The position numbers and the translations under genes are program-made. The notes under the pieces were generated by a model. The model did no database searches. It had not been told where the DNA came from and worked only from the letters and a program-made list of their open reading frames with translations. A stretch of DNA of 49,225 nt from an uncultured Chloroflexota bacterium (GTDB lineage Bacteria; Chloroflexota; Dehalococcoidia; UBA2979), in NCBI GenBank assembly GCA_913051185.1, contig CAJXBM010000005.1, positions 1 through 49,225 on the forward strand, in the 5' to 3' direction. Shown in pieces: positions 28,164-44,971 of the stretch; position 1 is the first letter of the stretch; the number at the start of each line of letters is the position of its first letter.

Positions 28164-29429
28164 CTACCCACGATACTTGGAAAATACCAATGAAGAGTTG
28201 TGTCCACCAAAACCAAGTGAATTTGTCATTGCCACATTAACCGAAGTTACGCGCGCTTTATTTGGCACATAATCCAAATCACAGTCCAGATCTGGCGAAT
28301 TTAGATTGATCGTTGGATGCACTATGTCATCCTTAATCGACAATGCCGTCACTACTGCCTCAATACCACCTGCAGCCCCTAACGTATGGCCGACCATAGA
28401 CTTGGTAGATGAAATAGGTACGGAATAGGCCTGTTCGCCAAAAACTGATTTTATGGAAAGCGTTTCAAACTTATCGTTTAAAGGTGTTGAGGTTCCGTGC
28501 GCATTAATATAGTCCACGTCCAAGGGTTCTATTTCTGCTTTAGTCAAAGCAATATTCATTGCCCGCGCGGCCCCTTCCCCCTGCTCGGATGGCTGGGTTA
28601 TATGATAAGCATCAGCAGATTGACCATATCCTCGATACTCACAAATAATATCTGCGCCTCGCCTCTCCGCGTGCTCTTGATCTTCCAAAATCAAAATCCC
28701 CGATCCCTCGCCTAGCACGAAACCATCTCGTTCCTGATCGAATGGTCGCGACGCGGTAGATGGATCATCATTTCTCGACAACGCACGGCTATTAGCAAAA
28801 GCGGTAATCGACATCCGTGTGACTGCTCCTTCTGCTCCTCCCGCTATCATTGCAACAGCATCACCACGCCTAATCACTTCAGCAGCAGTTCCAATCGAGT
28901 CTGCACCAGATGCACAGGCTGAAACAGTATTAAAGTTTGGTCCCTTGGCGCCATATCTAATCGACACTTGCCCAGCGGCCATATCGGGAATGAACATAGG
29001 TACCAAAAAGGGACTCACGCGACCCGGACCTTTATCAAAGAAATTCTTGAATTCACGCTCGAGGGTTTCCATCCCACCAATACCAACACCGATCATACAG
29101 CCTATCTGCTCGGCTTCACTATCAATGTCCAGTCCCGACTGATCTATCGCTTCTCCAGCCGCCATAATCGCAAGATGTGTGAATCGATCCATTCTACGAG
29201 ACTCTTTTTTATCTAAATATGTCGATAGATCGAAATCTGGAACCTCACCAGATACCTGAGAAGCCAAATCACTTACATCACATCGTTGCGTAAGACCTAT
29301 GCCATTCACTCCAGATCTCAGCGCATCCCAGGCAGCATCTCGTCCTACACCGTTCGCAATTATCAGTCCAACACCAGTAACCACTACCCGTCTTAAATTA
29401 GATTGACTATCAGTATTGTTAAATTCGAT
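28164..29429 (-). CDS. fabF: 3-oxoacyl-ACP synthase II (paralogue 2), start codon uncertain
   Basis: SACASG, NAHGTST, KSMVGH, NSLGFGGHN. The conserved RRVVVTG begins upstream of the first GTG (29384), and the open frame extends past an ATC at 29429. Confidence 0.9.
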   Translation of the reverse strand: MEFNNTDSQSNLRRVVVTGVGLIIANGVGRDAAWDALRSGVNGIGLTQRCDVSDLASQVSGEVPDFDLSTYLDKKESRRMDRFTHLAIMAAGEAIDQSGLDIDSEAEQIGCMIGVGIGGMETLEREFKNFFDKGPGRVSPFLVPMFIPDMAAGQVSIRYGAKGPNFNTVSACASGADSIGTAAEVIRRGDAVAMIAGGAEGAVTRMSITAFANSRALSRNDDPSTASRPFDQERDGFVLGEGSGILILEDQEHAERRGADIICEYRGYGQSADAYHITQPSEQGEGAARAMNIALTKAEIEPLDVDYINAHGTSTPLNDKFETLSIKSVFGEQAYSVPISSTKSMVGHTLGAAGGIEAVVTALSIKDDIVHPTINLNSPDLDCDLDYVPNKARVTSVNVAMTNSLGFGGHNSSLVFSKYRG

Positions 29430-29461
29430 GTTAGAGCTCCATTCTTACTGAGTTAAATTTC

Positions 29462-30721
29462 TCATCCTGCCCATTGACTAAATATCATTGCACTATTGTG
29501 TCCACCTAAGCCAACCGAAGTACTAATAGCATTTCGTATCTCGCGAGGCCGAGCTGAATTAGGCACATAATCTAGATCGCATTCTGGATCAGGACTTCTG
29601 TAATTCAAGGTCGGTGGCAATATATTATTTTCTATCGCTAAAACCGTTAGAGCTGCTTCAACAGCACCCGCTGCCCCCATTAAATGCCCTGTGGCTGCCT
29701 TCGTAGACGACACCGCCAACTCATATGCGGATTCGCCGAAAACTGACTTGATCGCCTTTGTCTCGACCTTGTCATTAAGAAGTGTCCCTGTGCCATGAGC
29801 ATTGATATAGTCAATATCTTGTGGAGAAAGTTCTGCCTGCTTCAAAGCTTCGGCCATTGCATTTGCGATACCTGTTCCATCTGCAGCGACCATATCAAAA
29901 GCATCAGAAGAAGTTGCCGCGGACTTACATTCAGCATAAATATGAGCGCCTCTGGCCACGGCTCGTTCTGACTCTTCCAAAACAAGAACCGCCGCACCTT
30001 CACCTAGAATAAACCCATTCCTATCACTATCAAAAGGTTTGACTGCTTCAACTGGATTATCAGATACAGCAAGAGCCTTCATCGCATTGAAACCTGCGTA
30101 GAAAACCGGCTGTAGCGGCGCCTCATGGCCGCCCGCCAAGACAATATCGGCTTCCCCTCGCTGTATAACGGAAATGGCCTCGCCAGTGGCCGCACCCCCT
30201 GTGGCGCACGCAGCTGTCACGGCAAAGTTAGGCCCCTTCAATCCCAAATCAATCGCAATCAATCCTGATGCTGTATCCGCGAGCATGTTAGTTATCAAAA
30301 AAGGAGATACTCGCCTTGGCCCTTTCTCATCCAAAACACGCTGAGCTTCAACCATTAAATGGCCGCCGCCGATACCAGTGCCTACAACTATTCCCGAGCG
30401 ATTCGGATTTACTTCAGATTGTTCTAATCCCGCATCAGACCATGCCTGTCTCGCTGCCACCATTGCGAAGGATGTCGACAAATCAATCCTTCGCTCTAAT
30501 TTTGGATCTAAAAATTCTGCAGGCTGAAAGTTTTTCACCTCGGCAGCTATTGGATATTCATAATCTTCAGCGGAGAATCTTGAGATATACCCTAAGCCTG
30601 ATTCTCCAGCAATTATCGATCTCCAACTGGAGTCCAAGTCATTCCCTACCGGAGATATAAGTCCAATACCTGTGACCACGACACGCCGCTTTGATAAATC
30701 AGCTGAGTTTTTGGATGACAT
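29462..30721 (-). CDS. fabF: 3-oxoacyl-ACP synthase II (paralogue 3)
   Basis: RRVVVTG, AACATG, NAHGTGT, KAATGH, SVGLGGHN. Start ATG 30721 (MSSKN). Confidence 0.9.
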   Translation of the reverse strand: MSSKNSADLSKRRVVVTGIGLISPVGNDLDSSWRSIIAGESGLGYISRFSAEDYEYPIAAEVKNFQPAEFLDPKLERRIDLSTSFAMVAARQAWSDAGLEQSEVNPNRSGIVVGTGIGGGHLMVEAQRVLDEKGPRRVSPFLITNMLADTASGLIAIDLGLKGPNFAVTAACATGGAATGEAISVIQRGEADIVLAGGHEAPLQPVFYAGFNAMKALAVSDNPVEAVKPFDSDRNGFILGEGAAVLVLEESERAVARGAHIYAECKSAATSSDAFDMVAADGTGIANAMAEALKQAELSPQDIDYINAHGTGTLLNDKVETKAIKSVFGESAYELAVSSTKAATGHLMGAAGAVEAALTVLAIENNILPPTLNYRSPDPECDLDYVPNSARPREIRNAISTSVGLGGHNSAMIFSQWAG

Positions 30722-30737
30722 AGGCAGCTCGTCTAAA

Positions 30738-31742
30738 CTAATTAATTGATTCGGTCGCGAAGATAGAAATAGGAATCGGATCCTGTCGAGCATCATCGAG
30801 TGACACTGCTATCGACGTCGAGTTAATGCGCCGAATCATTCTTGAAAGAGAATGTCCTGGACCAGCTTCAATAAATAGCTCTATCCCCTCTGATATCATT
30901 TTTCTGACATTACTCGCCCACATAACTGGTGATTTTAACTGATCTTCAAATTCATTTCTGACTTCAATTCCGGACACCATTAGGTGAGAGCCGATGTTAC
31001 TCACGATAGGAGCACACGGTGATTTGAAATCGACCTTACGGACAATTTCCGCAAATTCACTTGCCTGAGATTCGTGTAACGGAGTATGACTACTCACCTT
31101 AAGCTTCAACCGAATTGCCTTACCATGCTTGCCCTTAACGATGCCCATCGCTCGTTCTAAAGCAGCCACATCACCGGAAATTACAGTTTGCAAATCTTCG
31201 TTATGATTTGCTACATCCACTCTATTTTCAGGGCCTGAAGTCGCAGTCGAACAAACCTCAGCTACTACGTCATATTCCAACCCTATGATTGCTGCCATCC
31301 CCACAGGTCGTGCCTCATTGAAACTTCCCATCAATCGAGAACGTTCAAGAATCAAGCCTAACGAATCTTTAAAAGATAAGGCACCCGAGGCGACAGCAGC
31401 GGTAAACATACCCATTGAGTGACCTCCAAAAAATTGGGGGTCGATTGTGAAATTAATTTCGTTTAATTTTTCCTTCATTGCACGATACGTGGCGAGAGAA
31501 GTTGTGAGCACCGCGGGCTGAGTATTATGAGTGGACGCCAACGCATCTTCATCTGACTCAAAACAAATCTTAGCTAGATCTACACCAACAATTTCAGAAG
31601 CCTCCGAATACGTATCTCTCGCAGCCTGTGAAGCCTCGTATGCACGTCGGCCCATTCCGCTCGACTGGGCACCCTGTCCTGGAAATACCACCGCTGATCC
31701 ATGTGCACCAAGCTTGGCCACCCGAGAATCGATCATAAACAC
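30738..31742 (-). CDS. fabD: Malonyl-CoA:ACP transacylase
   Basis: FPGQGAQ, TQPA, GHSMG (catalytic Ser), R..LM, Q.VISG, SSH, E.GPG. Confidence 0.92.
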   Translation of the reverse strand: MFMIDSRVAKLGAHGSAVVFPGQGAQSSGMGRRAYEASQAARDTYSEASEIVGVDLAKICFESDEDALASTHNTQPAVLTTSLATYRAMKEKLNEINFTIDPQFFGGHSMGMFTAAVASGALSFKDSLGLILERSRLMGSFNEARPVGMAAIIGLEYDVVAEVCSTATSGPENRVDVANHNEDLQTVISGDVAALERAMGIVKGKHGKAIRLKLKVSSHTPLHESQASEFAEIVRKVDFKSPCAPIVSNIGSHLMVSGIEVRNEFEDQLKSPVMWASNVRKMISEGIELFIEAGPGHSLSRMIRRINSTSIAVSLDDARQDPIPISIFATESIN

Positions 31743-31768
31743 CCAACCATCGCTCTCTGCCTGTCCTC

Positions 31769-31795
31769 ACGGAAGGCTGAATTCAGCGGCACCGT
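31769..31795 (-). promoter_or_regulatory. Palindrome/hairpin in the leader of fabD-fabF-fabF
   Basis: Perfect 12-bp palindrome GCTGAATTCAGC (31776-31787) flanked by ACGG/CCGT, downstream of a TACAAT -10-like hexamer on the minus strand. Confidence 0.35.
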
Positions 31796-31845
31796 TCCCC
31801 GTAGTTGAGATTGTACTCTACACCAGCATTATTAAGACAGATTAC

Positions 31846-33453
31846 CTAAATATTAGCGGTCGGAGGATCCAAAACCTTGCGAGCCTCGGGTAGTGCACGA
31901 ACAATATCTGACGCCAGTGTCGCCGCATCACCGTAGACTTCACTTACCTGACGTGCAGCCTCTGCATGCATGTAAACCGCAGCACTAGCCGCATCGTATG
32001 AATTAATTTGCTGAGCCAAAAAACCGCCAGTAATTCCCGCAAGCACATCGCCCGTACCTCCGTGAGAGAGCGCAGAGCTCGCAGTATCCGAAAGTCTGGC
32101 TTCACCATTAATGTTGGAAATCACCGTGCCTGGACCCTTAAGAACAACTGTGGATTTTGATCTCTGAGCATAATCCGCAGCGACTTTTAATTTGTTTTGT
32201 CTAATATAATCGACTTCCAATCCGGTAAGGGTAGCCATTTCGCCAAGGTGTGGAGTGATAATAACTACTTGTCTAGTCAGTGATCGCCAATCTTCAATAC
32301 GCGCGAGCGCATTTAAACCGTCTGCATCAATTACTACACCTTGAAAGTCGACTGATACAACTTCATCTAATCCGGACAGAAATATCCTCACAAAGTCGAC
32401 AGTATTTTCATTATTACCGATCCCCGAACCCAGTAATATCGACTTAAACGAACGAGTTTTTAACTCATTCAATAACCCCTTCGCTGCCACCTCCCCGCCT
32501 AAATAACCATCCACATCGAAAGTAGGCAAATGGGAAATATCCGGAAGTGAAACTAGCAAAGATTGAATACTTTCTGGGGCAGCGAGTGTTACGGACCCAA
32601 CGCCAGTTCGAGCGGCGGCTTCAATCGCCAAACGAGCAGCTCCTGGATAGTTCCTAGATCCAGCAATAACTAGCAAGCGGCCGAATGTCCCTTTGTGACC
32701 ATCATTTGGTCTGGTAGGTAAAGCCCTGCGCAGGTCATGAAGTCTCAAACTTTGATACGGAATATCAACAGATTCTATGGCTGGTCCTGGGATTCCAATA
32801 TCAACTTCAACAGTTCTTCCACTATATTTTCTGCCGTCGCCCACGTAGTGACCAACTTTGCTGAATCCAAAAGTTACAGTCATTTCTGCAGGCACAGCGC
32901 AAACATCTGCCTCACCTGTGTCCGAATTTAATCCACTAGAAATATCAACGGCTATAACTCTGACTGGTGGGACTGCCGCAGCTGCCGCCTGCAATCGATT
33001 TAAAATCTCCGCATAAATGCCATCGATTGGTCTTTTTGTTGTATCAAAACCAATGCCAAAGATCCCGTCAAGCACAATGGTTGCTCGTTCCAGCAAAACC
33101 TCTAATTCCTCAAATTCACCATCTGCATTGGCAACCGCAAATGGTATTCCAAGTTCTTCAACGGCCGCCCATGATCTATCGGATTGATCTCGCGGACCGG
33201 TCAAGTAAACGAACACTGACGCGCCATAACCGTGAAGATGACGCGCAGCGATAAGTGCATCAGATCCATTAGTTCCCGGACCACAAATTACAAGAACAGG
33301 CCGGCCTTCCATAGTTCCCATTGCCATCCAACATTCTTGCGCTACAGCTAATCCGGCAGACTCCATCAGATCTTCATTGGTAACACCCTGTTTCAAGGCC
33401 TCGCGCTCTAAAGACTGCATTTGCTCTGTAGTAACGATCTGTCCACTAGCCAT
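31846..33453 (-). CDS. nnr: Bifunctional NAD(P)H-hydrate epimerase/dehydratase
   Basis: LMESAG, CGPG.NG.D, DGIFGIG, AVDI.SG, HKGTFG, Y.GAA.L, DADGLN, TPH.GEM, LKG, GGTGDVLAG. Confidence 0.93.
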   Translation of the reverse strand: MASGQIVTTEQMQSLEREALKQGVTNEDLMESAGLAVAQECWMAMGTMEGRPVLVICGPGTNGSDALIAARHLHGYGASVFVYLTGPRDQSDRSWAAVEELGIPFAVANADGEFEELEVLLERATIVLDGIFGIGFDTTKRPIDGIYAEILNRLQAAAAAVPPVRVIAVDISSGLNSDTGEADVCAVPAEMTVTFGFSKVGHYVGDGRKYSGRTVEVDIGIPGPAIESVDIPYQSLRLHDLRRALPTRPNDGHKGTFGRLLVIAGSRNYPGAARLAIEAAARTGVGSVTLAAPESIQSLLVSLPDISHLPTFDVDGYLGGEVAAKGLLNELKTRSFKSILLGSGIGNNENTVDFVRIFLSGLDEVVSVDFQGVVIDADGLNALARIEDWRSLTRQVVIITPHLGEMATLTGLEVDYIRQNKLKVAADYAQRSKSTVVLKGPGTVISNINGEARLSDTASSALSHGGTGDVLAGITGGFLAQQINSYDAASAAVYMHAEAARQVSEVYGDAATLASDIVRALPEARKVLDPPTANI

Positions 33454-33486
33454 AAATTTGCCTTCCTGCATACCCCATCACTTTAT

Positions 33487-34005
33487 TTAGAAACGACCCA
33501 CACCATCTACCCCAACCTCTTCGGGCGGATCACCTTCGGTCGCTCCGAGCAATCCACGTTCTCTGAGTCTGTACAATAATTTCTCCCGAGCATCTCCATG
33601 ACGTTGCTCTGGAGAAGTCTGAAAACTCACTACAACTGCCACGGCAAAAGACATTAAATGAGTTAACGAGATATCTATCGCTGTCAGGCCGATAACGTTA
33701 GCTCTCGCTCTCGCGCCTCCGTAAAGATATACCAGTGGCTTACCGCGCTGATCTGGAAGTACTTCAATTTCCCGCCATCCTACTGACCTTGCTCCCGTAC
33801 CCAAGGCTTTCATCAAAGCCTCTTTTGCTGCAAATCTGGCCGCTAATTCAGCTACTCTCCCCCTACAAAAAGCTATCTCTGCCTCGGTATAAACACGCTT
33901 AAGGAATCTCTCCGGATGTCGTGCGAGAACACGACCAACCCGATCAGTCTCGATCATATCTACTCCAACTGCATGGGAGCCAGCTTTTGAAGTTTCTAGC
34001 ATCAT
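33487..34005 (-). CDS. acpS: Holo-ACP synthase (4'-phosphopantetheinyl transferase)
   Basis: GVD.IE..R, LAARFAAKEA..KALGTG, GKP, ISLTH, plus a C-terminal extension of about 45 aa. Confidence 0.93.
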   Translation of the reverse strand: MMLETSKAGSHAVGVDMIETDRVGRVLARHPERFLKRVYTEAEIAFCRGRVAELAARFAAKEALMKALGTGARSVGWREIEVLPDQRGKPLVYLYGGARARANVIGLTAIDISLTHLMSFAVAVVVSFQTSPEQRHGDAREKLLYRLRERGLLGATEGDPPEEVGVDGVGRF

Positions 34006-34979: not shown

Positions 34980-36090
34980 ATGCATAATCTAATCCAACGT
35001 TGCGAAGAATTGTCAGCACGTGTTCATGACGTACAGGTGCGACTTTGACCTCCCAACGCAACAAGTGACCCTAGATGCTCTTCGCGAAAAAACACAACAA
35101 CCTGATTTTTGGGCTAACCAAGACACTGCAAAAACAATAATGCGTGATGTTGCAAGAATTGAGCGCGAGATCCAAACTTGGCAATCCTTGGAAGAATCAT
35201 TAGCTGAAAATCAGGAATTAATCGAACTTTTCGTTGATGACTCGTCTGAGGAGCTTGAATCTGAAATAATTGCTGCACTCGATCAGATTGAAACTCAGTT
35301 TAAGACTCTCGAACTCCGACTGAAATTAGGAGGAGATTATGACAACCGCCCTGCTGTCATTTCAGTCTATGCCGGCAGCGGCGGAACAGATGCTCAAGAC
35401 TGGGCCGAACTCCTTCTACGAATGTACATTCGATGGGCGAATTCACAACAAATGAAGACAGAAATAATCTCTATTACGAATGGTGACGAAGCTGGTATCA
35501 AATCCGCTGATATCAAAATTACCGGTGACTTCGCCTACGGACTATTGCAGTCTGAAAAAGGCGTACACCGACTGGTTCGCATATCACCCTTTGACTCCGC
35601 TAAGGCCCGGCATACCTCATTCGCACTAGTTGAAATAGTACCCGAGGCACAACATGGTGAACTAGTGATAGATATAAAAACTGATGAACTTCGCATAGAT
35701 ACTTTTAAAGCCTCAGGTAACGGCGGACAAAATGTTCAAAAAAATGACACTGCCGTGCGAATAGTGCATGAACCTACTGGAATAGTCGTGACGTGCCAAA
35801 ACGAGCGTTCGCAAGGACGAAATCGGGAACAAGCAATGCTCGTATTAGAATCACGACTTCTAGACATAGAAATAAAACGTCGGGAGGAAGAAGAGGCTAA
35901 GCTGCGCGGTGAACACATTGAAGCTGGCTGGGGAAACCAAATCAGATCATACGTCCTACATCCATATCGAATGGTCAAAGATCTTCGCACAAATTATGAG
36001 ACGTCTGCTGTTGATGATGTTCTCGATGGAGAGCTCATGCCTCTAATAAATTCATACCTCGACGAGAAAGTGGGGAAATCAGTTGGCTAA
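34980..36090 (+). CDS. prfB: Peptide chain release factor 2 with programmed +1 frameshift (join 34980-35045, 35047-36090)
   Basis: Frame 0 MHNLIQRCEELSARVHDVQVRL ends in CTT-TGA-C (35043-35049). The +1 frame has GGTDAQDW, SPF, GGQ and WGNQIRSY. Confidence 0.96.
35035..35049 (+). other. prfB +1 ribosomal frameshift site
   Basis: Internal SD-like AGGTG, 3-nt spacer CGA, then CTT TGA C. Confidence 0.93.
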
Positions 36091-37474
36091 TTTAAAAATC
36101 AACAAAGCTTTAGTCGTATCCTTGCTTCTATCAATTCTGACGATTTTGCTAGTGACTGAAAAATCAGCAAGCGTGGCTCAAGCTCAAACCAATAACGACA
36201 TAAACCTTATCGAGTCGAAAGCCACAGGAATAGACCCAAAAAAAATTCTGTTCCAAATCACCCTTGATACATCTTCTTCGATCCAAGAAATTGAGCTCAA
36301 TTATGTTGTTGAATCACCTGAAACAAATGTGGGTGGAACTCAAATTATCGACGCTCAGGGGAAATCTGGTTATCAGGTTTTCAGCACGGAGTTATCAACT
36401 AATGATAGCTCTAGGTACATCCCAATTGGAGTTACCATCACGTATCACTGGATCATAAAAAGCGACACCGGCGCTCTGCTCACAACTGGACAACAAACCT
36501 ATGTGTTTCTTGATGGACGTTTTGATTGGAAGAAAAAACAATCAGACAACATTGTAGTGTTCTACTACGGCGATAACCAACGAGGAACAACAGGAATTGG
36601 GGCTACAAAAGATGCTTTAGAGAGTGTTAGCGACCTTCTGCAAGTAAAGGTGCCTTATAAAGTTACAGTGGTCATATGGGATACCGAACGCAATGGCGAA
36701 GCAGCTCAAAGATCTCGTGGTTCAACCTTTGACGCAGCCGTGTCCACATTAGGAACCCGAGTAGCGACGGATCTAGTCCATATTTACGAAACACGTGGTG
36801 ATTATGCGGATACTACTCGACATGAAATAGCTCATATAGTCACACACGTAGCAGGAGATGGATCAATTGGGAAAATTCCATCGTGGTTAGACGAAGGCAC
36901 AGCAGTGTACGCTCAAAAAAATACCACTGGAAGAAAATTTGCTTTGGAGCAAGCTGTACGCCAGGACAATCTCTTCAGGCCAAAAACAGAGGGAGTTGGC
37001 GCGCCGAATACAAGCGAAACTGTAGATGCATTTTATGGTCAGTCACACGCAATGGTTGTTTTCATGATCAACACTTGGGGTGAACAAAAGTTTTCAGAAT
37101 TATTTAGTGTAATCAAGGCTGGGTCCAAACCCGACGGGGCATTCCAAACGGTCTACGGAATTGATCTCGATAACTTCTATAACCAATACCGAATTTATGA
37201 AGGACTTTCGCCGATTGAATTTAAAAAGATTGAAATCAAATCCCCGCCAAAAACAGCAGCTACGCAAGTGCCCTACACAATTGCCACAGGAACAAAAATC
37301 ACAAGTGACACTAAAGCTAACAAAGAAAATTCATCAACGGGAGTTTCTGACACTTCCACAAGCAAAGAAACTGGAGCAAACAGCAATAGCACCCGCGCAC
37401 TCGTGGTAGGACTCATAACCGTTGTCCTGGCTCTAACCTTAGGATTTGTGTCCTACCGGTTAGTGAAACGGTAG
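36083..37474 (+). CDS. Exported, membrane-anchored peptidase MA-like (gluzincin) metallopeptidase
   Basis: N-terminal hydrophobic signal, HEIAH plus downstream WLDEG, Ser/Thr-rich linker, C-terminal TM helix and basic tail. Confidence 0.82.
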   Translation: MANLKINKALVVSLLLSILTILLVTEKSASVAQAQTNNDINLIESKATGIDPKKILFQITLDTSSSIQEIELNYVVESPETNVGGTQIIDAQGKSGYQVFSTELSTNDSSRYIPIGVTITYHWIIKSDTGALLTTGQQTYVFLDGRFDWKKKQSDNIVVFYYGDNQRGTTGIGATKDALESVSDLLQVKVPYKVTVVIWDTERNGEAAQRSRGSTFDAAVSTLGTRVATDLVHIYETRGDYADTTRHEIAHIVTHVAGDGSIGKIPSWLDEGTAVYAQKNTTGRKFALEQAVRQDNLFRPKTEGVGAPNTSETVDAFYGQSHAMVVFMINTWGEQKFSELFSVIKAGSKPDGAFQTVYGIDLDNFYNQYRIYEGLSPIEFKKIEIKSPPKTAATQVPYTIATGTKITSDTKANKENSSTGVSDTSTSKETGANSNSTRALVVGLITVVLALTLGFVSYRLVKR

Positions 37475-37480
37475 GCTGAG

Positions 37481-38101
37481 ATGATTAAGTCTAATTCTAT
37501 TGTCAGCAATATTCGAGATTCTGGGCGAAGTCTGCTCAGTCGAATTATCGCGCCCGTTATTGATGGGATGATTGCACTGCGTATCACGCCATCAATGATT
37601 ACCATCGCCGGATTAATCGGGTGTATCCCAGCAATGATTCTTGTTGCACAAGGCAACCTCCTTCTAGGTGGAATAATTTTCTTTGTCAGCTCACTCTTAG
37701 ATCTATTCGATGGGGCGTTGGCAAGAAAAAGTAACTCAAGCTCTGATAGAGGGGCACTATTGGACTCAGTTGCTGACAGGGTATCGGAAGTACTTATCAT
37801 GGCTGGTATCCTCTATTTTGGCTGGTCAATTCAAGACAAAAGCATAGTCCTGTTCTCTTTCGGATCCGTTGTAGGATCTCTTCTTGTGTCCTATATTCGA
37901 GCTCGAGCAGAAGGGCTTGGCTTAAACTTGAGTGACGGCTGGTTTACAAGACCTGAACGAGTCATTCTCATAAGCGGATTACTTCTCTTCAATCTTGTAT
38001 CACAGGGTTTAATTCTTTTAACGATACTTACGTTCTTCACTGCACTCCAAAGATGGAAACTGGCGGACGAAAAGTTAAAAATGATAAATGACAAATTCTA
38101 A
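37481..38101 (+). CDS. pgsA: CDP-alcohol phosphatidyltransferase, PgsA/PIP synthase-like
   Basis: TP..IT, DLFDGALAR...GALLDSVADR, LVSYIRARAEGLG and R.ER, all typical of the PI(P)-synthase-like subgroup. Inositol genes are adjacent. Confidence 0.8.
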   Translation: MIKSNSIVSNIRDSGRSLLSRIIAPVIDGMIALRITPSMITIAGLIGCIPAMILVAQGNLLLGGIIFFVSSLLDLFDGALARKSNSSSDRGALLDSVADRVSEVLIMAGILYFGWSIQDKSIVLFSFGSVVGSLLVSYIRARAEGLGLNLSDGWFTRPERVILISGLLLFNLVSQGLILLTILTFFTALQRWKLADEKLKMINDKF

Positions 38102-38112
38102 AGGCTAGGTAT

Positions 38113-39000
38113 ATGTCAAAAGAAACAGAATCCACCATGACTGACAATACCAAAAGTGCGGAAAATCCATTATCGAGAGAGGCCGAAGCACAACTTGCCT
38201 CAACTTTGCAACAAAATATTCAAAGAAGACTCTCACTCGACGTCTGGTCCCGCCCATCGAGTTCAATTTATCGGAGTGATCGCGACGACGCCCGCCATGG
38301 TCTCGAAATGATAAATCTCGTCAGACAAATTACCTCACTGCATCCGGCTATATCTTTCACGCCATACAACATTGACACTTTTGCCGAAAGAGCCAAACAA
38401 GATTTTGTCACTGTAGCGCCAACAATAGTTGCTCGATCTGCCGGACACTCTGTCCGACTCGTTGGCATTCCAGCTGGGACATTATTTCCTGCATTCATCG
38501 ACGTAATAGTTTCTCTCACCTATCTGAGTCTGCCTTTAGATGATGAAATTTATCAAATAATCGAAAAAATCGAGTCAAACGTAGATAACAAAGCACCTGT
38601 TGAGGTCGAGCTATTCGTGACGCCCTATGACGATGTGTCCAGCCGACTTTATGGAATTTTTGGTGTCTTGGCCGCGGCTACAAAGTCGGTAAGGGTAACC
38701 ATTACTGAAATTGCCGAGTTCCCAATACTGGCGAAAAATAGGCTTATCGAGCAAGTTCCTGTCGTAACACTTAATGGGCATCGATTTATCGGTGTTTGGG
38801 CGCTACACGAGATACTTCATCAAATTTTACACATAGCTAAATCTGAGGATGACATCGTTGTACGTCAAGAATCTTTTTCTGGACCCTATGTTAGCGAGGA
38901 TGAGGCGTTAAGATTAGTCAGTGAGCAATCTCAATCTGACTCCAATACCGGTGATCCAGACCTAAAGGAAACTGATAGCGGCTTGCTCATTCCCCGATAG
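38113..39000 (+). CDS. Tandem-thioredoxin-fold protein (PDO/AhpF-NTD-like) lacking all cysteines
   Basis: APTI, GIPAG..F..FI, VELFVTP, EFP.LA....EQVP...LNG. The CxxC positions are replaced and there is no Cys in 295 aa. Confidence 0.7.
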   Translation: MSKETESTMTDNTKSAENPLSREAEAQLASTLQQNIQRRLSLDVWSRPSSSIYRSDRDDARHGLEMINLVRQITSLHPAISFTPYNIDTFAERAKQDFVTVAPTIVARSAGHSVRLVGIPAGTLFPAFIDVIVSLTYLSLPLDDEIYQIIEKIESNVDNKAPVEVELFVTPYDDVSSRLYGIFGVLAAATKSVRVTITEIAEFPILAKNRLIEQVPVVTLNGHRFIGVWALHEILHQILHIAKSEDDIVVRQESFSGPYVSEDEALRLVSEQSQSDSNTGDPDLKETDSGLLIPR

Positions 39001-40156
39001 TTTTGACGCAGCACTTCTTAAGCAATAAATCTCGATAATAATTTTCAATACGAACGGAAATACGAGACCAATCGAATTCAGTCACGCGTACCCTACCATT
39101 TTGTCCTAAATGATTTCTCAGAATAGGATTGTCGATTAGTCTAATCATCGCCGCCGACAACGCGGCCACATCCTGTACAGGGACTAGAATACCCTCCTCT
39201 TCATCACGAACTACATATGAGTAACCCGCGATATCAGAGGCAATCACAGGTAAATGAGCCGACATGGCTTCCAGCAACACATATCCTTGACTCTCATTGC
39301 CTGTAGCAGGAGAAACAAATAAGTCAGCACTTCTATAGTATCGCGGCAACTCCTCATTCGTAGGATTCGTAATCCAAACAATATTGTCCCGCAACTCACT
39401 AGCGCGCATACTATCTTCTTGATATTTTCGACGCTTTGCAGAGTCAGGACCTACCACGATTAAACGAGCAGACGGACGGACACGGGTAACAGCATTAAAA
39501 GCCTCGAGCAGCACCCCAAGACCCTTGCGTTTCTCTGCACGGCCAACATAAAGAATATTGACCCGATCATCACCTCGCAAAGAATTTATCGGAGACAGAT
39601 GCGGACTATCCCACTCATCGGGCTCTATGCCATTTGGAATTATTTCATAAGACTCAGTGAAATATTTCGAAATATAATCTTTAGCTGAAGAGGATACTGC
39701 GATCTTTCCGTCAAGCCTCTCCATATGTTTTCGAAGAAACCTACTACTTAGAGAATACAGCAGATTTCCGTTCTCTCGAGTCGCATGAAACGTGCCAATA
39801 TTTACAGCATGCGGGATGACTTTCTTCGAATAATGTAAAGCCATTAGTGATAGCAGAGGCATAAAAGGTTCGTGGTAATGTATTACATCAAACTGACGTG
39901 AAGAAAAAATATCTTTAATAGACATAATCTCCCTGGGGTTAACAGCGATTCTAACTTGCGATCCGGAAGCGGGAATTGGGATAGGTTTACCTAAAATACG
40001 TACTGTTTTACCCGCGCTCGAGTGACTCGCGGGCGCGATGATATCTACTTGGTGGCCTAACCCACGCATGATCTTTGCGAGCTTAAAAATATGATTGTTT
40101 ACACCACTGGGAACAGACCAATCATATGGTGAAATATATGCAATTTTCAAAAACAC
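38987..40156 (-). CDS. pimA: GT4 glycosyltransferase, PimA-like phosphatidyl-myo-inositol mannosyltransferase
   Basis: SPYDWSVPSGV..H, HEP..P.LS, GTFH, IAVS, IPNG, GR.EKRKG, G.ES.G.VLLEAM, ASDI. Confidence 0.78.
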   Translation of the reverse strand: MFLKIAYISPYDWSVPSGVNNHIFKLAKIMRGLGHQVDIIAPASHSSAGKTVRILGKPIPIPASGSQVRIAVNPREIMSIKDIFSSRQFDVIHYHEPFMPLLSLMALHYSKKVIPHAVNIGTFHATRENGNLLYSLSSRFLRKHMERLDGKIAVSSSAKDYISKYFTESYEIIPNGIEPDEWDSPHLSPINSLRGDDRVNILYVGRAEKRKGLGVLLEAFNAVTRVRPSARLIVVGPDSAKRRKYQEDSMRASELRDNIVWITNPTNEELPRYYRSADLFVSPATGNESQGYVLLEAMSAHLPVIASDIAGYSYVVRDEEEGILVPVQDVAALSAAMIRLIDNPILRNHLGQNGRVRVTEFDWSRISVRIENYYRDLLLKKCCVKTIGE

Positions 40157-40174
40157 GCCCCTTGATTTTCAAAG

Positions 40175-40945
40175 TTATTTCGCGCTGAAGCGCCTAATCG
40201 TCTTTTCGACAATCTTTCTTGGTGTAACGGCTATGCCTTTAGCCTGTTGGGCAACTAAACGTCCCAATCCGATCTCTAAAAATGAAAATTCGTCGTCAAT
40301 CAATCCAATAGTTGTACGACTAGTTATTGCTCGTCTCAAAGAGGCCTCATCTCGACCATAAAATAGTGTATACCCGGTCCCAATAGCCTCTTTAAAATGC
40401 GCGTCAGAGCTACCCGTCTCAGCAAGATTCCATCTCTCATGATTAAGTATCGGCACTCTCCACCCGGAATGAACACCGGCAAACTTATGCATCGATGTTG
40501 GGTTTCCAACCTCTATCGCATCTGGTCGAAAAATCCCGTCAGATTGTCCCATTAATTTATCAAGAGCTCGATAGCCAACTGATCGAGTTAAATGTGAAAA
40601 AGGATGAGGAATTATCACAATTCCACCCAGCTCATGCACATATTCAATGGTCCTGTGTAAGGATTTAAAAGAGGGCACCGGCTCATCGATCCAAAGAGCT
40701 AATATGTGACCCGATAACGTAGTTATTTCTATACCTGTTACAAAATCAAAGGAGTAGCCACCTCTTGTATGTGTGTCTCGAGCCTCAAGTGCTCCGCGAA
40801 TGTCATCATGATCGGTAATAGCTATGACATCAAGAAATCCTGAACGCTCAGTTGTATCAAAAATAACTTTTGCGCTATCCATACCGTCTCCAAATGAGCT
40901 GTGCACTTGTAAATCGGCACGGCCATATAACGCAGAATTGATCAT
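40175..40945 (-). CDS. PHP domain metal-dependent phosphoesterase
   Basis: DLQVHS..GDG, AITDHD, G.EI.T..GH, PHP, DAIEV.N, GSSDAH. Confidence 0.88.
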   Translation of the reverse strand: MINSALYGRADLQVHSSFGDGMDSAKVIFDTTERSGFLDVIAITDHDDIRGALEARDTHTRGGYSFDFVTGIEITTLSGHILALWIDEPVPSFKSLHRTIEYVHELGGIVIIPHPFSHLTRSVGYRALDKLMGQSDGIFRPDAIEVGNPTSMHKFAGVHSGWRVPILNHERWNLAETGSSDAHFKEAIGTGYTLFYGRDEASLRRAITSRTTIGLIDDEFSFLEIGLGRLVAQQAKGIAVTPRKIVEKTIRRFSAK

Positions 40946-41001
40946 TTCTAAATTATAGAGGTCAGGTCGAATTCAACTTTTTTAATACCTTGTCAAAATT
41001 C

Positions 41002-41895
41002 CTACGTATCTTTATTCAACTCGTCCACCCATATCGGATTAAGAGGAAACCACTGATTTGGCCACCGCGTGATTCCGTCCTCCAGTTCCGATATCAAGGA
41101 TTGCATATTCTCTAACCGCTCCTGTACTGAATCGCTCCCGTGAAAATTAAAATGAACTTTTTTGAAATGGATTCCGTAATGTCCAGGTCTTGTCCTAGGA
41201 GCCCAAAAAATGAGGACCTCAGCGCCCGTAGATTCAGCCAACTGCAAAGCTCCCTCAGGAACAGGTGCCTTTGACGAAAAAAAATCAAATAATCTTGCAG
41301 TACCAACCACGTCACGATCGGTTAAGAGTGCAAGTAGCCCACCAGATTTAAGATGCTTGTGCGCGCGCCTGAGGCCAGAAAAGCTAGTCGGAAAGAAACA
41401 TACGCCAGTTCTTCGACGAATTCTATTCATAAACTTCTCAACCGAGTCTGACGGTAGTGATTCTGAAATTACTCCGGTATTCAATCCGAATCTACCTATA
41501 GCCTGACCGACGATCTCTGGATTCCCAAGATGGGCCGAAATGACGATTACCCCTTTTCCTTGATCCAACGCTTCAAACAATAGGTTTAAACCAACAAATT
41601 CATCTATATATTGTGCAAAGTCTTCTCCAGCTAGACGTGAATATCTTGGTAAGTCCGTGTAATAACGTACAGCTGTAAGCAAACAGCCCCGAGCCGTTGC
41701 CTCAATCAAGCTTTCAGATACAGTTCCACTCAATACCTGCTGAATACGCTTGATAAGTACATCCTTCAATCGCGCATTGGTCAACCATAATATCGAGGTC
41801 ACTAACCTTGCAACGCAATCAAGTATCCTGTCGGGCAGAAATCGACCGAAGCCGACCAACATTCTCAGTGCTATAGATTTAATCACTCCTGACAC
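41002..41895 (-). CDS. Lysophospholipid/lipid A-type acyltransferase, PatA-like (copy B)
   Basis: GKGVI.ISAHLGNPE (Hx4E), LL.DR, FF, P.G...LA, I..WP.QW...PIW. Confidence 0.82.
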   Translation of the reverse strand: MSGVIKSIALRMLVGFGRFLPDRILDCVARLVTSILWLTNARLKDVLIKRIQQVLSGTVSESLIEATARGCLLTAVRYYTDLPRYSRLAGEDFAQYIDEFVGLNLLFEALDQGKGVIVISAHLGNPEIVGQAIGRFGLNTGVISESLPSDSVEKFMNRIRRRTGVCFFPTSFSGLRRAHKHLKSGGLLALLTDRDVVGTARLFDFFSSKAPVPEGALQLAESTGAEVLIFWAPRTRPGHYGIHFKKVHFNFHGSDSVQERLENMQSLISELEDGITRWPNQWFPLNPIWVDELNKDT

Positions 41896-42808
41896 GGATT
41901 CGTATACCCCCCCCTATATGAAATCTGTCTTTGCTCCAAAAATATCGATACATATGCCATTGGCTCAGATCATTTCGGATTAATTTTTCGATCGCATTCA
42001 TCATGCTCTGAGTCAAAAAAGCAACATCTGTGTCCATGTTGCCAGTAGGTTCAAAAGTAACTGGCTCAATCAATAACAAGGCTTTATCAGAATATGGACC
42101 AGTACGCATCGGAAAGCCAGCAATAATTGGAGCTCCGGATAAGAGTGAGAGTCTTGCTGGGCCATCATGAATTAGAACTCTCTCTCCAAAAAATGTTACC
42201 TCGACGGCCTCCTCGACTACAGGTGGCACGTCAATCAAAATACTCACCAAATTGTTTTGCTTGAGCTGTCTGTGAATTTGAAGTGCATGGCCTTTTGCTG
42301 GAATCAGATCAAATCCTAAGCTGTGTCTGATCTTTTTGACCAGAAAATCAAAGTTTTGATTTTTGAATTCGTCTGCCACGACCGAAGTTGGTATTCCTAA
42401 AAGTTGAGTCGCTGCAGCCGGGCCAAAATCCCACATGCCAGCATGAAGGCCTATGGCAATCACCCCGTTGCCTCGTCTTAACCCATGAACAATATTCGCG
42501 TCCAGTATCTTAACTCGACTACTAACATCCCGAACCTCCCTCTTACGAGCTTGGCGTAACAGTCGAAGTAAATCGACTACGTACATTCCATAAGACCGAA
42601 ATGATTTCTGAGCCAGCTGATGTGCCTGCTCAGTATTACCCCCCGTAACGCGCATCATATTCGCGATCGTAATTACTCGTTTCGCAGGCATGAAATGGTA
42701 AGCCAGACTACCAATAAATGACGCGAGTCTGTAGCTAATTTGAAGGGGAACTAAATCAACTGGTAATAAAAAAATATAGACCAGTGCCGAAATAATTGTT
42801 TTATTCAT
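41879..42808 (-). CDS. Lysophospholipid/lipid A-type acyltransferase, PatA-like (copy A)
   Basis: GVI....HAGMWD (Hx4D), IL.D, V.FFG, GPARL....GAPI, QWHM...FW. Confidence 0.82.
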   Translation of the reverse strand: MNKTIISALVYIFLLPVDLVPLQISYRLASFIGSLAYHFMPAKRVITIANMMRVTGGNTEQAHQLAQKSFRSYGMYVVDLLRLLRQARKREVRDVSSRVKILDANIVHGLRRGNGVIAIGLHAGMWDFGPAAATQLLGIPTSVVADEFKNQNFDFLVKKIRHSLGFDLIPAKGHALQIHRQLKQNNLVSILIDVPPVVEEAVEVTFFGERVLIHDGPARLSLLSGAPIIAGFPMRTGPYSDKALLLIEPVTFEPTGNMDTDVAFLTQSMMNAIEKLIRNDLSQWHMYRYFWSKDRFHIGGGIRIRVRSD

Positions 42809-42822
42809 TCAGGTACAAAGAT

Positions 42823-42859
42823 AACGTAGAAGAGATCGATTTTCAGTCTCTTCTACGTT
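42823..42859 (-). terminator. 13-bp stem hairpin after ino1 (terminator, attenuator or mRNA stabiliser)
   Basis: AACGTAGAAGAGA-N11-TCTCTTCTACGTT perfect inverted repeat, followed on the minus strand by a weak U tract (ATCTTT). Confidence 0.65.
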
Positions 42860-42892
42860 CCCTTCATCAATAAAACAAACTCAGCTAGCTTA

Positions 42893-43993
42893 CTATTTAG
42901 CTTCTATAAAATCCTCAAGCGCTAATCGAGCCACCTCATCCCGCATTTGCCGCGGTGGTGACTTCATAAAGTATGCGGACGCTTCAAATACAGGTCCACC
43001 AACACCTCGATCTAGTGCTAATTTCGCACACCTGACCGCATCAATAACTACGCCAGCCGAGTTAGGTGAATCCCAAACTTCTAACTTAGTCTCAAGATTC
43101 AAAGGAACATTTCCAAAGGTAGTACCCTCAACTCTAATATGACACCATTTTCTGTCTAAAAGCCATGGTACGTAATCGGACGGACCAACATGAACATCAG
43201 CGTCTGGCAAGTCATACTCAATCTGACTCGTCACGGCAGATGTTTTAGAAACTTTCTTAGACTCAAGCCGTTCGCGTTCGAGCATATTCATGAAGTCCGT
43301 ATTGCCGCCAAAATTCAATTGATAGGTTCTATCAATTTGCACGCCTCTGTCCTGAAACAGTCGCACTAGTAATCGGTGCAATATCGTCGCGCCAACTTGA
43401 CTCTTAATATCGTCTCCGATGATCGGCAAATTGGCCTTTTCAAACCGGTCAGCCCAATAATTGTCTTTCGCTATAAATACAGGAATGCAATTAATAAATG
43501 CGCAGCCTGCTGCAATCACCTGCTCTACATACCATTTGGTAGCGTTCTCACTACCAACAGGAAGATAGGAAATTACAACGTCCGTCTTAGTATCCTTGAG
43601 TATCTGTGCAATATCAGCAGTTTGCCCAGGTGCTTTATCAATCACCTCAGATAGGTATTTTCCTATCCCATCGTGAGTCATTCCTCTTTCAACCGTAACG
43701 CCTGTCTTTGGAACTTCCGTAAACTTAAGAGTATTGTTCTGACCACTAAATACGGCTTCCGAGAGATCCTTTCCCACTTTATCGGCATCAACATCAAACG
43801 CGGCCGTAAACTCGATGTCATTAATGTGATACCCACCAAGAACGGGATGCATTAATCCTGGAATATCGTCACTAGCTTCGGCTGACTTATAAAATTCAAC
43901 CCCCTGAACTAAGGATGAGGCACAGTTTCCAACACCAATAATAGCCACGCGAACTTTAGGATTAGTCGAACTTGTATTCTTTTTCTTTGCCAT
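42893..43993 (-). CDS. ino1: myo-inositol-1-phosphate synthase
   Basis: [73 protein letters not shown]. Confidence 0.96.
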
Positions 43994-44110: not shown

Positions 44111-44971
44111 ATGGAATTCTCTTCAAAGCAACTTTTATATCTTGACATGATAAATAAAAAAGGAACCTTAGCTGCCGCGGCCGACGAACTCCAAATAACA
44201 CAACCAGCCCTATCGTTCGCAGTCACCGAACTAGAGCGCAAGATCGGATTGCAATTATTTGAAAAAAAAGGCCGACGAAAAGTACTTACTGCTTCGGGTC
44301 AACTCGTTACTGAATTTGCCAAAGAAACACTATATAGGGCAAGAGAATTATCAGAACTACTCTCAATGGATAACCGTGGTAAAGAAGGTTCACTGCGTAT
44401 CGGTATGATCGACGCTGCCTCACTCTACCTTTTACCAACCGCAATCGAAGCCTTCAAAAATGAAACTCCTGATATCAAGTTGTATATCACTGTTAACGAT
44501 TCAGACACGTTAACTGAGCAGCTGGAAAACTTCGAAATTGACATCGCATTTGTGGTTTCAAAACACGAAAATAGCTTACCCCTCTCCAAACTAACCTCAA
44601 CTCTTATCCTAGAAGAATCTCTATTGCTCTGTAACCCGCTGGCAAATAGAGCACAACCCATGAAAGAATGGGCTCTCTATCCCGAAAAATCCAGGACTAG
44701 AGCGCTAATAGACGAGGGAATTCAATCGCTTGAACTTGAATCAAACACCATAGTTCAATCTTCGAATCCACAAATTCTGCGACAGTTAGTCGTACTTGGC
44801 CTTGCTACAAGCATACTTCCAGAACAAGTAGCCAAAGAAAACAAAAATATTTACGTGGGTAAGGAGATTGCCCGGCGCAGTATTATCGCACTACGCCGAG
44901 CAAATTCTCCATTCGACCCAAAAGTAGCAAGCTTGATCTCACTTGCTCTTAAGTTTTACAACAAGGTCTAA
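44111..44971 (+). CDS. LysR family transcriptional regulator
   Basis: AAADEL.ITQPALS.....LE...G..LFE..GR...LT..G HTH and a substrate-binding domain (GSLRIG). Confidence 0.93.
   Translation: MEFSSKQLLYLDMINKKGTLAAAADELQITQPALSFAVTELERKIGLQLFEKKGRRKVLTASGQLVTEFAKETLYRARELSELLSMDNRGKEGSLRIGMIDAASLYLLPTAIEAFKNETPDIKLYITVNDSDTLTEQLENFEIDIAFVVSKHENSLPLSKLTSTLILEESLLLCNPLANRAQPMKEWALYPEKSRTRALIDEGIQSLELESNTIVQSSNPQILRQLVVLGLATSILPEQVAKENKNIYVGKEIARRSIIALRRANSPFDPKVASLISLALKFYNKV

Follow-up and report, generated by a model that had tools for sequence, protein, structure and literature searches.

Glycolipids of the phosphatidylinositol mannoside (PIM) type are treated as a hallmark of Actinobacteria, and the question raised by the locus described here is whether a comparable pathway is encoded in another phylum. 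The locus lies at positions 37481-43993 of a 49,225-nt stretch of DNA (hereafter the window, meaning that stretch at its full length) from the 83%-complete genome of an uncultured marine Dehalococcoidia bacterium, phylum Chloroflexota. It contains genes for a myo-inositol-3-phosphate synthase (ino1), two acyltransferases of the LpxL/PatA family (A and B), a metal phosphoesterase of the PHP family, a GT4 glycosyltransferase and a CDP-alcohol phosphatidyltransferase. An earlier interpretation made from the letters alone (the sequence-only reading) had described a minus-strand operon running ino1, A, B, PHP and GT4 and converging on the CDP-alcohol transferase gene, and this layout proved correct, with exact coordinates for the open reading frames (ORFs) and with the named families confirmed by Pfam and NCBIfam. 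The locus is best read as a real, conserved operon which would encode a Chloroflexota variant of the early PIM pathway enlarged by ino1, a second acyltransferase and the PHP protein. A probability of roughly 70% is assigned to its being a route to acylated glycosyl-phosphatidylinositol lipids resembling PIM1 and acylated PIM (AcPIM). Homology, key residues, phylogeny and gene order support this reading directly, while the assignments of substrates, sugar donor, lipid backbone and acylation sites, and that of the PHP protein's substrate, are deduced. The open-access papers searched contained no description of the cluster in Chloroflexota and no confirmation of the earlier statement on diol-based inositol lipids in Thermomicrobia; for Dictyobacter, a cultured Chloroflexota genus, the accessible part of PMC12453558 names phosphatidylinositol (PI) as a major polar lipid and also mentions unidentified glycolipids.

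The strongest evidence comes from the GT4 enzyme. It has the two-domain architecture of GT-B/GT4 proteins, with Glyco_transf_4 at residues 17-180 and Glycos_transf_1 at residues 196-355, both above the Pfam cut-offs. When compared with all PDB sequences, it matches PimA of Mycobacterium smegmatis (2gej/4n9w) over the full length at E 2.5e-52 (181 bits), against 5.2e-24 for the runner-up, 4.5e-14 for MshA and 4.5e-13 for PimB' among the other PDB chains retrieved with phmmer. A maximum-likelihood tree was built from 56 rows, an original 94 having been reduced by keeping every other row of the three large groups, and was left unrooted. A single clade, with a support of 97 in the SH-like approximate likelihood-ratio test (SH-aLRT), unites 30 GT4s of Chloroflexota clusters with 10 actinobacterial PimAs defined by their operon, and 4 MshA-like rows (retrieved with TIGR03449) and 12 further GT4s fall outside it; the reference actinobacterial PimAs are defined by synteny, not by experiment. 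Chloroflexota (SH-aLRT 97) and Dehalococcoidia (97) each occupy one side of a branch in this unrooted tree, and because each is split off by a single branch, the pattern fits vertical inheritance of the cluster GT4 rather than recent transfer. At the residue level, the window GT4 keeps the equivalents of PimA Y9, G16, R68, H118, R196, E199, R201, K202, E274, S275 and E282. Donor-phosphate or catalytic roles are described for G16, H118, R196, E199, R201, K202, E274 and E282 in the accessible part of PMC9202250, and the equivalents of G16, H118, R196, R201, K202, E274, S275 and E282 are invariant among 28 Dehalococcoidia, 30 other Chloroflexota and 20 actinobacterial GT4s. By its residues and its position in the tree, the cluster GT4 is assigned as a PimA orthologue.

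The assignment of the GT4 to the PimA type and not to the MshA clade, which the sequence-only reading had advanced, is supported. A function resembling that of MshA, with inositol phosphate as the substrate and a thiol of the mycothiol type as the eventual product, might be suspected from the NCBIfam MshA model, which matches the C-terminal half of the protein at 79.5 bits, and from Ino1, whose best NCBIfam model is 'mycothiol_INO1'. Such a function is nonetheless extremely improbable: MshA-like sequences taken from five actinobacterial genomes group on their own in the tree (SH-aLRT 98), well apart from the cluster GT4, the solved MshA is matched much more weakly than PimA, and the gene is linked to that of a phosphatidylinositol phosphate (PIP) synthase in 33 of 37 loci.

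The second pillar of the proposed pathway is the CDP-alcohol transferase. Among NCBIfam models it scores highest with archaetidylinositol phosphate (AIP) synthase (133.3 bits) and PIP synthase (125.2 bits), followed by the Bacteroides BT_1523 type (118), di-myo-inositol phosphate phosphate (DIPP) synthase (52) and pgsA (42.5), the first two scores each being about three times the last and all five lying under the equivalog cut-offs of their models, and its best solved chain is PgsA1 (6h53, E 1.8e-24). Across 26 sequences from Dehalococcoidia, 29 from other Chloroflexota and 15 from actinobacteria, the residues of the CDP-alcohol motif DxxDGxxAR...GxxxDxxxD (D74, D77, G78, A81, R82, G91, D95 and D99) show no change. 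The same holds, apart from one actinobacterial Pro at S132, for the equivalents of PgsA1 R94, S132, Y133, R152, R155 and R195, whose roles in the inositol-phosphate pocket are described in the accessible part of PMC6506517. In the window protein R100, S137, R160 and R191 correspond to R94, S132, R155 and R195, the last match being drawn from an alignment of C-terminal invariant residues and not from a structure. These scores and the kept pocket identify the transferase as a predicted PIP synthase, in agreement with the earlier reading, against which an enzyme making phosphatidylglycerol (PG) or di-myo-inositol phosphate (DIP) would have counted.

A different outcome would be a locus making a soluble inositol solute (DIP or a mannosylated form of it) instead of a lipid. 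The enzyme classes superficially match the DIP route, which comprises a myo-inositol phosphate synthase (MIPS), a CDP-alcohol transferase and a phosphatase, and besides its DIPP synthase score the transferase matches a solved chain of the inositol-phosphate cytidylyltransferase/DIPP synthase (IPCT/DIPPS) type (4mnd) at 4e-8. This outcome is considered very improbable. No cytidylyltransferase domain was found with Pfam in the 206-aa protein, which disfavours a DIPP synthase, and the PIP and AIP models score more than twice as high; moreover, the operon holds two lipid acyltransferases and a GT4 orthologous to the lipid-acting PimA, and the sequence occurs in marine metagenome runs, whereas DIP is a solute of hyperthermophiles.

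The PIP synthase is, in addition, the sole PF01066 gene detected in the 83%-complete genome of the window. Sixty-one Dehalococcoidia genomes were sampled, each at least 92% complete except that of the window; 38 of them hold exactly one PF01066 gene and 23 hold two, and in the eight single-copy genomes with cross-checked coordinates this gene is always the PIP synthase adjacent to pimA. No separate phosphatidylglycerophosphate (PGP) or phosphatidylserine synthase of the PF01066 family was seen in the single-copy Dehalococcoidia genomes, and if the pattern holds these bacteria may be devoid of PGP synthase.

The distribution of the genes has been followed over three sets of genomes. Of 41 Dehalococcoidia genomes, the window's own counted, 38 contain the GT4 with an E-value no weaker than 5.4e-71, and a search of 201 Chloroflexota genomes gave 149 with a match at 1e-40 or below; the three closest database contigs, all from Dehalococcoidia metagenome-assembled genomes, show a GT4 identity of 88, 78 and 76%. 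(The tallies of GT4 matches in Actinomycetota and Chloroflexota and those of PHP homologues include genomes flagged as unpublished, namely G043, G060, G090, G110, G159, G281 and G300, which contributed no locus or tree row.) Among 20 Dehalococcoidia loci, one of them cut by a contig end, the PIP synthase gene (pips) occurs in 18, the PHP gene in 16, ino1 in 15 and at least one acyltransferase gene in 15, the commonest order being ino1-acylA-acylB-PHP-pimA-pips, optionally followed by a thioredoxin-fold gene, on one strand. The identity of ino1 in related clusters is 64-97%. Thirty-seven further loci, one per Chloroflexota genome, have pips directly after pimA in 33 cases and upstream of ino1 in 3, with ino1 in 25 and at least one acyltransferase gene in 26; all seven Dehalococcoidia loci in this set are minimal, consisting of just ino1-pimA-pips or pimA-pips. 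Since the same neighbours recur in both sets of loci, the grouping goes beyond chance, and the conservation across Chloroflexota that the sequence-only reading had left to be checked is borne out. As judged from these genomes, the cluster is spread over much of the phylum and is not peculiar to the organism of the window. Two gene fusions were considered and rejected: a PHP-PimA fusion, suggested by open frames of 580-670 aa, is contradicted by 16 loci, in none of which the two genes share an open frame, the frames of that length being stop-poor stretches of another frame, and a PimA-PIP synthase fusion in locus L098, suggested by a 591-aa read-through, is interrupted by an in-frame stop that separates the genes.

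In 81 Actinomycetota genomes a GT4 match at E 1e-25 or better is present in 52 and is single in 51 of these. Of twenty actinobacterial loci inspected, 15 have both a PIP synthase and an LpxL-family acyltransferase beside the match, 2 have just the acyltransferase and 3 lack both, and because of these neighbours the matches are taken to represent the classical pgsA1-patA-pimA operon. The 20 loci are of the one-acyltransferase kind and have no PHP gene or ino1 within about 8 kb of pimA, so that the earlier claim of two extra enzymes absent from the actinobacterial operon is upheld for these loci.

The remaining lipid-related genes agree with this picture at the family level. Ino1 reaches 127.6 bits with Pfam Inos-1-P_synth against a cut-off of 27, and 562.8 bits with TIGR03450 over model positions 1-355 of 355. 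Both acyltransferases exceed the Pfam cut-off for Lip_A_acyltrans; A matches the solved PatA at E 3e-11, and B matches the solved LpxM (7e-9) slightly better than PatA (3e-8). The equivalents of PatA H126, R164 and H284 are kept in A, with E149 and E200 replaced by Asp, and those of H126, E149 and R164 in B, where E200 is Asp and H284 is Phe; H126 is the catalytic His and E200 its acidic partner according to the accessible part of PMC4792965. In a 54-row tree, A, B and actinobacterial PatA form three separate groups with mean path lengths of 3.57, 3.71 and 3.76, a topology from which A and B are stated to be two anciently diverged paralogues, with B as the apparent older-split second copy.

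The organism and its locus are also represented in environmental data. Thirteen metagenome runs of marine or aquatic origin contain at least half of the words sampled from the same stretch, and ino1 is covered, with an identity of at least 95%, by contigs of 4 of 4 metatranscriptome libraries, each listed under a study of its own. Short contigs of RNA libraries also lie on acylA, pimA and pips, and most of acylB, the PHP gene and the thioredoxin-fold gene is uncovered by them, to which no meaning is attached.

Several observations weigh against the reading of the locus as a PIM-like pathway. Ino1 misses the strict TIGR03450 cut-off of 638, the transferase stays below both equivalog cut-offs (125.2 against 170 for PIPSynth, 133.3 against 180 for archin_ph_syn), and the acyltransferases reach 103 (A) and 97 bits with the NCBIfam PatA model PRK07920, whose cut-off is 209. 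Neither acyltransferase groups specifically with actinobacterial PatA in the 54-row tree. The contigs from RNA libraries are a weak sign and no proof of transcription, DNA being a possible source. In the GT4, three changes (Q18N, Y62A and N63S) affect members of a set of ten residues described as critical in PimA (accessible part of PMC9202250); Q18 and Y62 are each kept in just 10 of 20 actinobacterial PimAs and are not family-defining, and Y9 and R68 are kept in the window. The mannose-contacting F276 is replaced by Gln in the window GT4, and this position is Gln in 14 of 28 Dehalococcoidia and Phe in 20 of 20 actinobacterial PimAs. Finally, no GDP-mannose pyrophosphorylase of the GMP_PMI type (TIGR01479) was found in the genome of the window or in five near-complete relatives, an absence that says little as the Corynebacterium glutamicum control is also without a match.

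The last two points bear on the possibility that the pathway runs as proposed with a sugar other than mannose (e.g., glucose, N-acetylglucosamine or a uronic acid), which would yield a non-mannoside glycosyl-PI. In the genome of the window two NTP_transferase matches are seen, an RmlA-long-like fragment and a nucleotidyltransferase-CobD fusion, and a single sugar-1-phosphate nucleotidyltransferase was seen, with a resemblance to RmlA-long and archaeal GlmU that would suit another donor. Against this stand the place of the enzyme inside the PimA clade, the retention of E274, S275, E282 and the phosphate-binding R196 and K202, and the uninformative control just mentioned, and a sugar other than mannose is regarded as unlikely. 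The guanine-contact residues D252, D253 and K256 were tried as a test of the donor and dropped, as they vary among actinobacterial PimAs too and give no discrimination. The fusion lies on contig C4 of the same genome (L042:37-1926, minus strand) as a 629-aa ORF with a sugar-phosphate nucleotidyltransferase-like N-terminus and a CobD-like threonine-phosphate decarboxylase/aminotransferase domain.

The most delicate part of the pathway is the dephosphorylation of PIP. The PHP protein is proposed as the PIP phosphatase because of its position before pimA, because of the chemistry needed, the pathway requiring a phosphomonoesterase, and because no PgpA-family gene (PF04608) was found in 5 of 5 Dehalococcoidia genomes (G000, G009, G011, G012 and G142), in a search to which five control genomes respond. 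The PHP gene stands directly upstream of pimA at 5-56 nt in 16 of the 20 Dehalococcoidia loci, and a strong homologue takes the same place in 13 of the 37 further loci, all of other Chloroflexota classes. An AlphaFold model of the protein has a predicted local distance difference test score (pLDDT) of 89.9, eight metal-ligand positions (H15, H46, E73, H80, H114, E145, D181 and H183) are invariant in 28 sequences, and the C-terminus is predicted as a basic helix, the last 45 residues of the 28 homologues carrying a net charge of +2 to +13 that would suit an anionic membrane surface. A PgpA-like enzyme is the PIP phosphatase of Bacteroides, and that of other bacteria is described as unidentified, in the accessible part of PMC9246714. 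On this basis, a role of the PHP protein as PIP phosphatase is given about even odds.

Other findings weigh against that role and hence against the full pathway. In the family of the window the first His of the HxH metal motif of the PHP protein is Gln13 (DLQVH), the gene is missing from 24 of the 37 further loci, including all seven minimal Dehalococcoidia loci, and the closest characterised relatives act on nucleotides (RNase AM and pAp phosphatase). A profile of the 28 cluster-linked homologues matches RNase AM/TrpH-type PHP chains at 1e-23 to 1e-13, and the top Foldseek matches of the model are uncharacterised PHP phosphoesterases and RNase AM, down to E 5.6e-12. The protein could consequently be a phosphoesterase of nucleotides or oligonucleotides like RNase AM, or an inositol-monophosphate phosphatase, in which case PIP would keep its phosphate or lose it to an enzyme encoded elsewhere, an explanation whose chances are put a little below one half. 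A PAP2 phosphatase over the cut-off in G142, which lacks the PHP gene, would be compatible with it, the PAP2 matches in the family of the window being weak and sub-threshold and five genomes being too few to argue displacement; the position before pimA, the requirement for a phosphomonoesterase, the missing PgpA and the charged C-terminus speak for a PIP phosphatase. Distant cluster-linked PHP homologues keep DLHxH. In Actinomycetota weak PHP homologues (66 bits or less) occur in just 8 of the 81 genomes, on contigs other than that of pimA where both positions are listed, and since no close homologue was found in the searched Actinomycetota, the PHP protein does not identify the mycobacterial enzyme.

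With these elements the proposed acylated glycosyl-PI pathway can be outlined as follows. Ino1 would convert glucose-6-phosphate to myo-inositol-3-phosphate, which the membrane PIP synthase would link to CDP-diacylglycerol to form PIP. The PHP phosphoesterase would then turn PIP into PI, the least certain of the steps, and the PimA-type GT4 would add a hexose, probably mannose, to the inositol of PI. One or two more acyl chains would come from the two LpxL/PatA-family acyltransferases, one of which probably acylates the sugar in a PatA-like manner and the other a different position. Only one strong GT4 was found in the genome of the window, and higher PIMs are accordingly unlikely. The complete route from glucose-6-phosphate to acylated glycolipids that the sequence-only reading had claimed goes further than the evidence, the PIP phosphatase step being conjectural and no GDP-mannose gene being assigned.

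The comparison with known systems shows what is shared and what is specific. The pgsA1-patA-pimA genes of Mycobacterium and Corynebacterium are clustered as their counterparts are in Chloroflexota, with an orthologous PimA, an identical inositol-phosphate pocket and, in the window, a PatA-family acyltransferase with the catalytic His and Arg kept. In contrast, the actinobacterial order is pips-patA-pimA with one acyltransferase, and the Chloroflexota order is ino1-acylA-acylB-PHP-pimA-pips, with ino1 inside the operon, two anciently diverged acyltransferases in the window and a PHP phosphoesterase in its cluster. The Bacteroides thetaiotaomicron cluster BT_1522-BT_1526 likewise joins a MIPS and a PIP synthase to a dedicated PIP phosphatase, and the synthase of the window reaches 118 bits with the BT_1523 model; in the accessible part of PMC9246714 that phosphatase is PgpA-like and the cluster leads to inositol sphingolipids, whereas the cluster of the window has a PHP protein, a PimA-type GT4 and acyltransferases instead. 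Archaeal AIP synthase shares with the transferase the use of inositol phosphate as acceptor, in addition to providing its top NCBIfam model, but the window belongs to a bacterial genome with a CdsA-like gene, and the fused cytidylyltransferase of IPCT/DIPPS is missing. The PHP protein has the fold and the His/Asp/Glu metal set of TrpH/RNase AM-type enzymes (9etk, 7ug9 and 2yb1) and of the uncharacterised TM0559 and BVU_3505, from which it differs by an identity of 17-21% in structural alignments, by Gln13, by the basic C-terminal helix and by its lipid-operon context.

The core genes (PIP synthase, PimA and PatA-family acyltransferases) would thus form a vertically inherited operon over much of Chloroflexota, including abundant uncultured marine Dehalococcoidia, which are reported as devoid of peptidoglycan in the accessible part of PMC13721041. 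If the products exist, they would be candidate envelope lipids and membrane anchors in these bacteria and might be used as biomarkers of the intact-polar-lipid kind. For PIP dephosphorylation and a second acylation, two steps without an assigned enzyme in this lineage, the PHP protein and the second acyltransferase would then provide testable candidates. A more ambitious proposal joins three assumptions: that inositol lipids and not PG are the main CDP-diacylglycerol-derived phospholipids in the many Dehalococcoidia where the PIP synthase is the sole CDP-alcohol transferase, that an inositol hydroxyl is freed by the PHP protein as a PIP phosphatase of a new type, and that acyltransferase B acylates that hydroxyl. 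The three together are doubtful; if they were true, the envelope would have acylated glycosyl-PI as one of its major lipids, with possible use as a marine biomarker, and acyltransferase B would represent the inositol-acylating enzyme of Ac2PIM, since the enzyme acylating position 3 of inositol in Ac2PIM2 was described as unidentified as of 2016 in the accessible part of PMC4792965.

Table 1. Genes of the inositol-lipid locus and its immediate neighbours, with positions in the window.
Feature	Position	Strand	Remarks
ino1, myo-inositol-3-phosphate synthase	42893-43993	-	first operon gene; Pfam Inos-1-P_synth, NCBIfam TIGR03450
Acyltransferase A, LpxL/PatA family, more PatA-like of the pair	41879-42808	-	Pfam Lip_A_acyltrans 120.9 bits
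Acyltransferase B, second LpxL/PatA-family paralogue	41002-41895	-	Pfam Lip_A_acyltrans 71.8 bits
PHP-family metal phosphoesterase, candidate PIP phosphatase	40175-40945	-	Pfam PHP_C, predicted fold
PimA-type GT4 glycosyltransferase	38987-40156	-	last minus-strand gene; Pfam, PDB match, tree
PIP synthase (CDP-alcohol phosphatidyltransferase), 206 aa	37481-38101	+	Pfam CDP-OH_P_transf, NCBIfam
Thioredoxin-fold (PDO-like) protein, 295 aa, predicted co-transcribed with PIP synthase	38113-39000	+	NCBIfam PDO_seleno_TRX
LysR-family regulator, divergent from ino1	44111-44971	+	Pfam HTH_1 and LysR_substrate

At the level of gene organization (Table 1), the minus-strand genes from ino1 to the GT4 gene are separated by an 84-nt gap, a 17-nt overlap, a 56-nt gap and an 18-nt gap. 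Between the PIP synthase and GT4 genes lies a gene absent from the earlier reading, the thioredoxin-fold ORF, which starts 11 nt after the PIP synthase gene and whose 3' end overlaps that of the GT4 gene by 14 nt. Its product scores 67 bits with PDO_seleno_TRX against a cut-off of 185. The window copy contains no cysteine, like those of L037, L038 and L019, and a CxxC motif is kept in 6 of 14 homologue rows, two rows being fragments. In the 20 Dehalococcoidia loci the gene directly follows that of the PIP synthase in relatives of the same family, and no match to it was found in the 37 further Chloroflexota loci. An inversion of the pips-thioredoxin pair, seen in the window and in two loci of its genus, accounts for the convergent layout, and pips now lies 6 nt after a peptidase gene (window 35020-38101); prfB and this Peptidase_MA_2 gene precede the PIP synthase gene in the window, and the same flanking genes are found across its family. 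The LysR gene adjoins ino1 on the opposite strand in 10 of the 20 Dehalococcoidia loci, was without a match in the 37 further ones, and its product is a possible regulator of the operon. Scans for promoters and terminators were not above chance (11 against 14.7 +/- 3.8 expected and 5 against 5.6 +/- 2.4 expected, respectively). The eukaryotic GPP34 family binds phosphoinositides. A value of 97.33% is given for 75 sponge-associated Dehalococcoidia genomes in the first GPP34 column of a table in the accessible part of PMC11706023. The G+C content across the window is 0.41-0.48, and fatty-acid synthesis genes are located 3.5-9 kb from the cluster, at 28164-34005 on the minus strand, encoding two beta-ketoacyl synthases, an acyl transferase domain protein and a 4'-phosphopantetheinyl transferase of the AcpS family.

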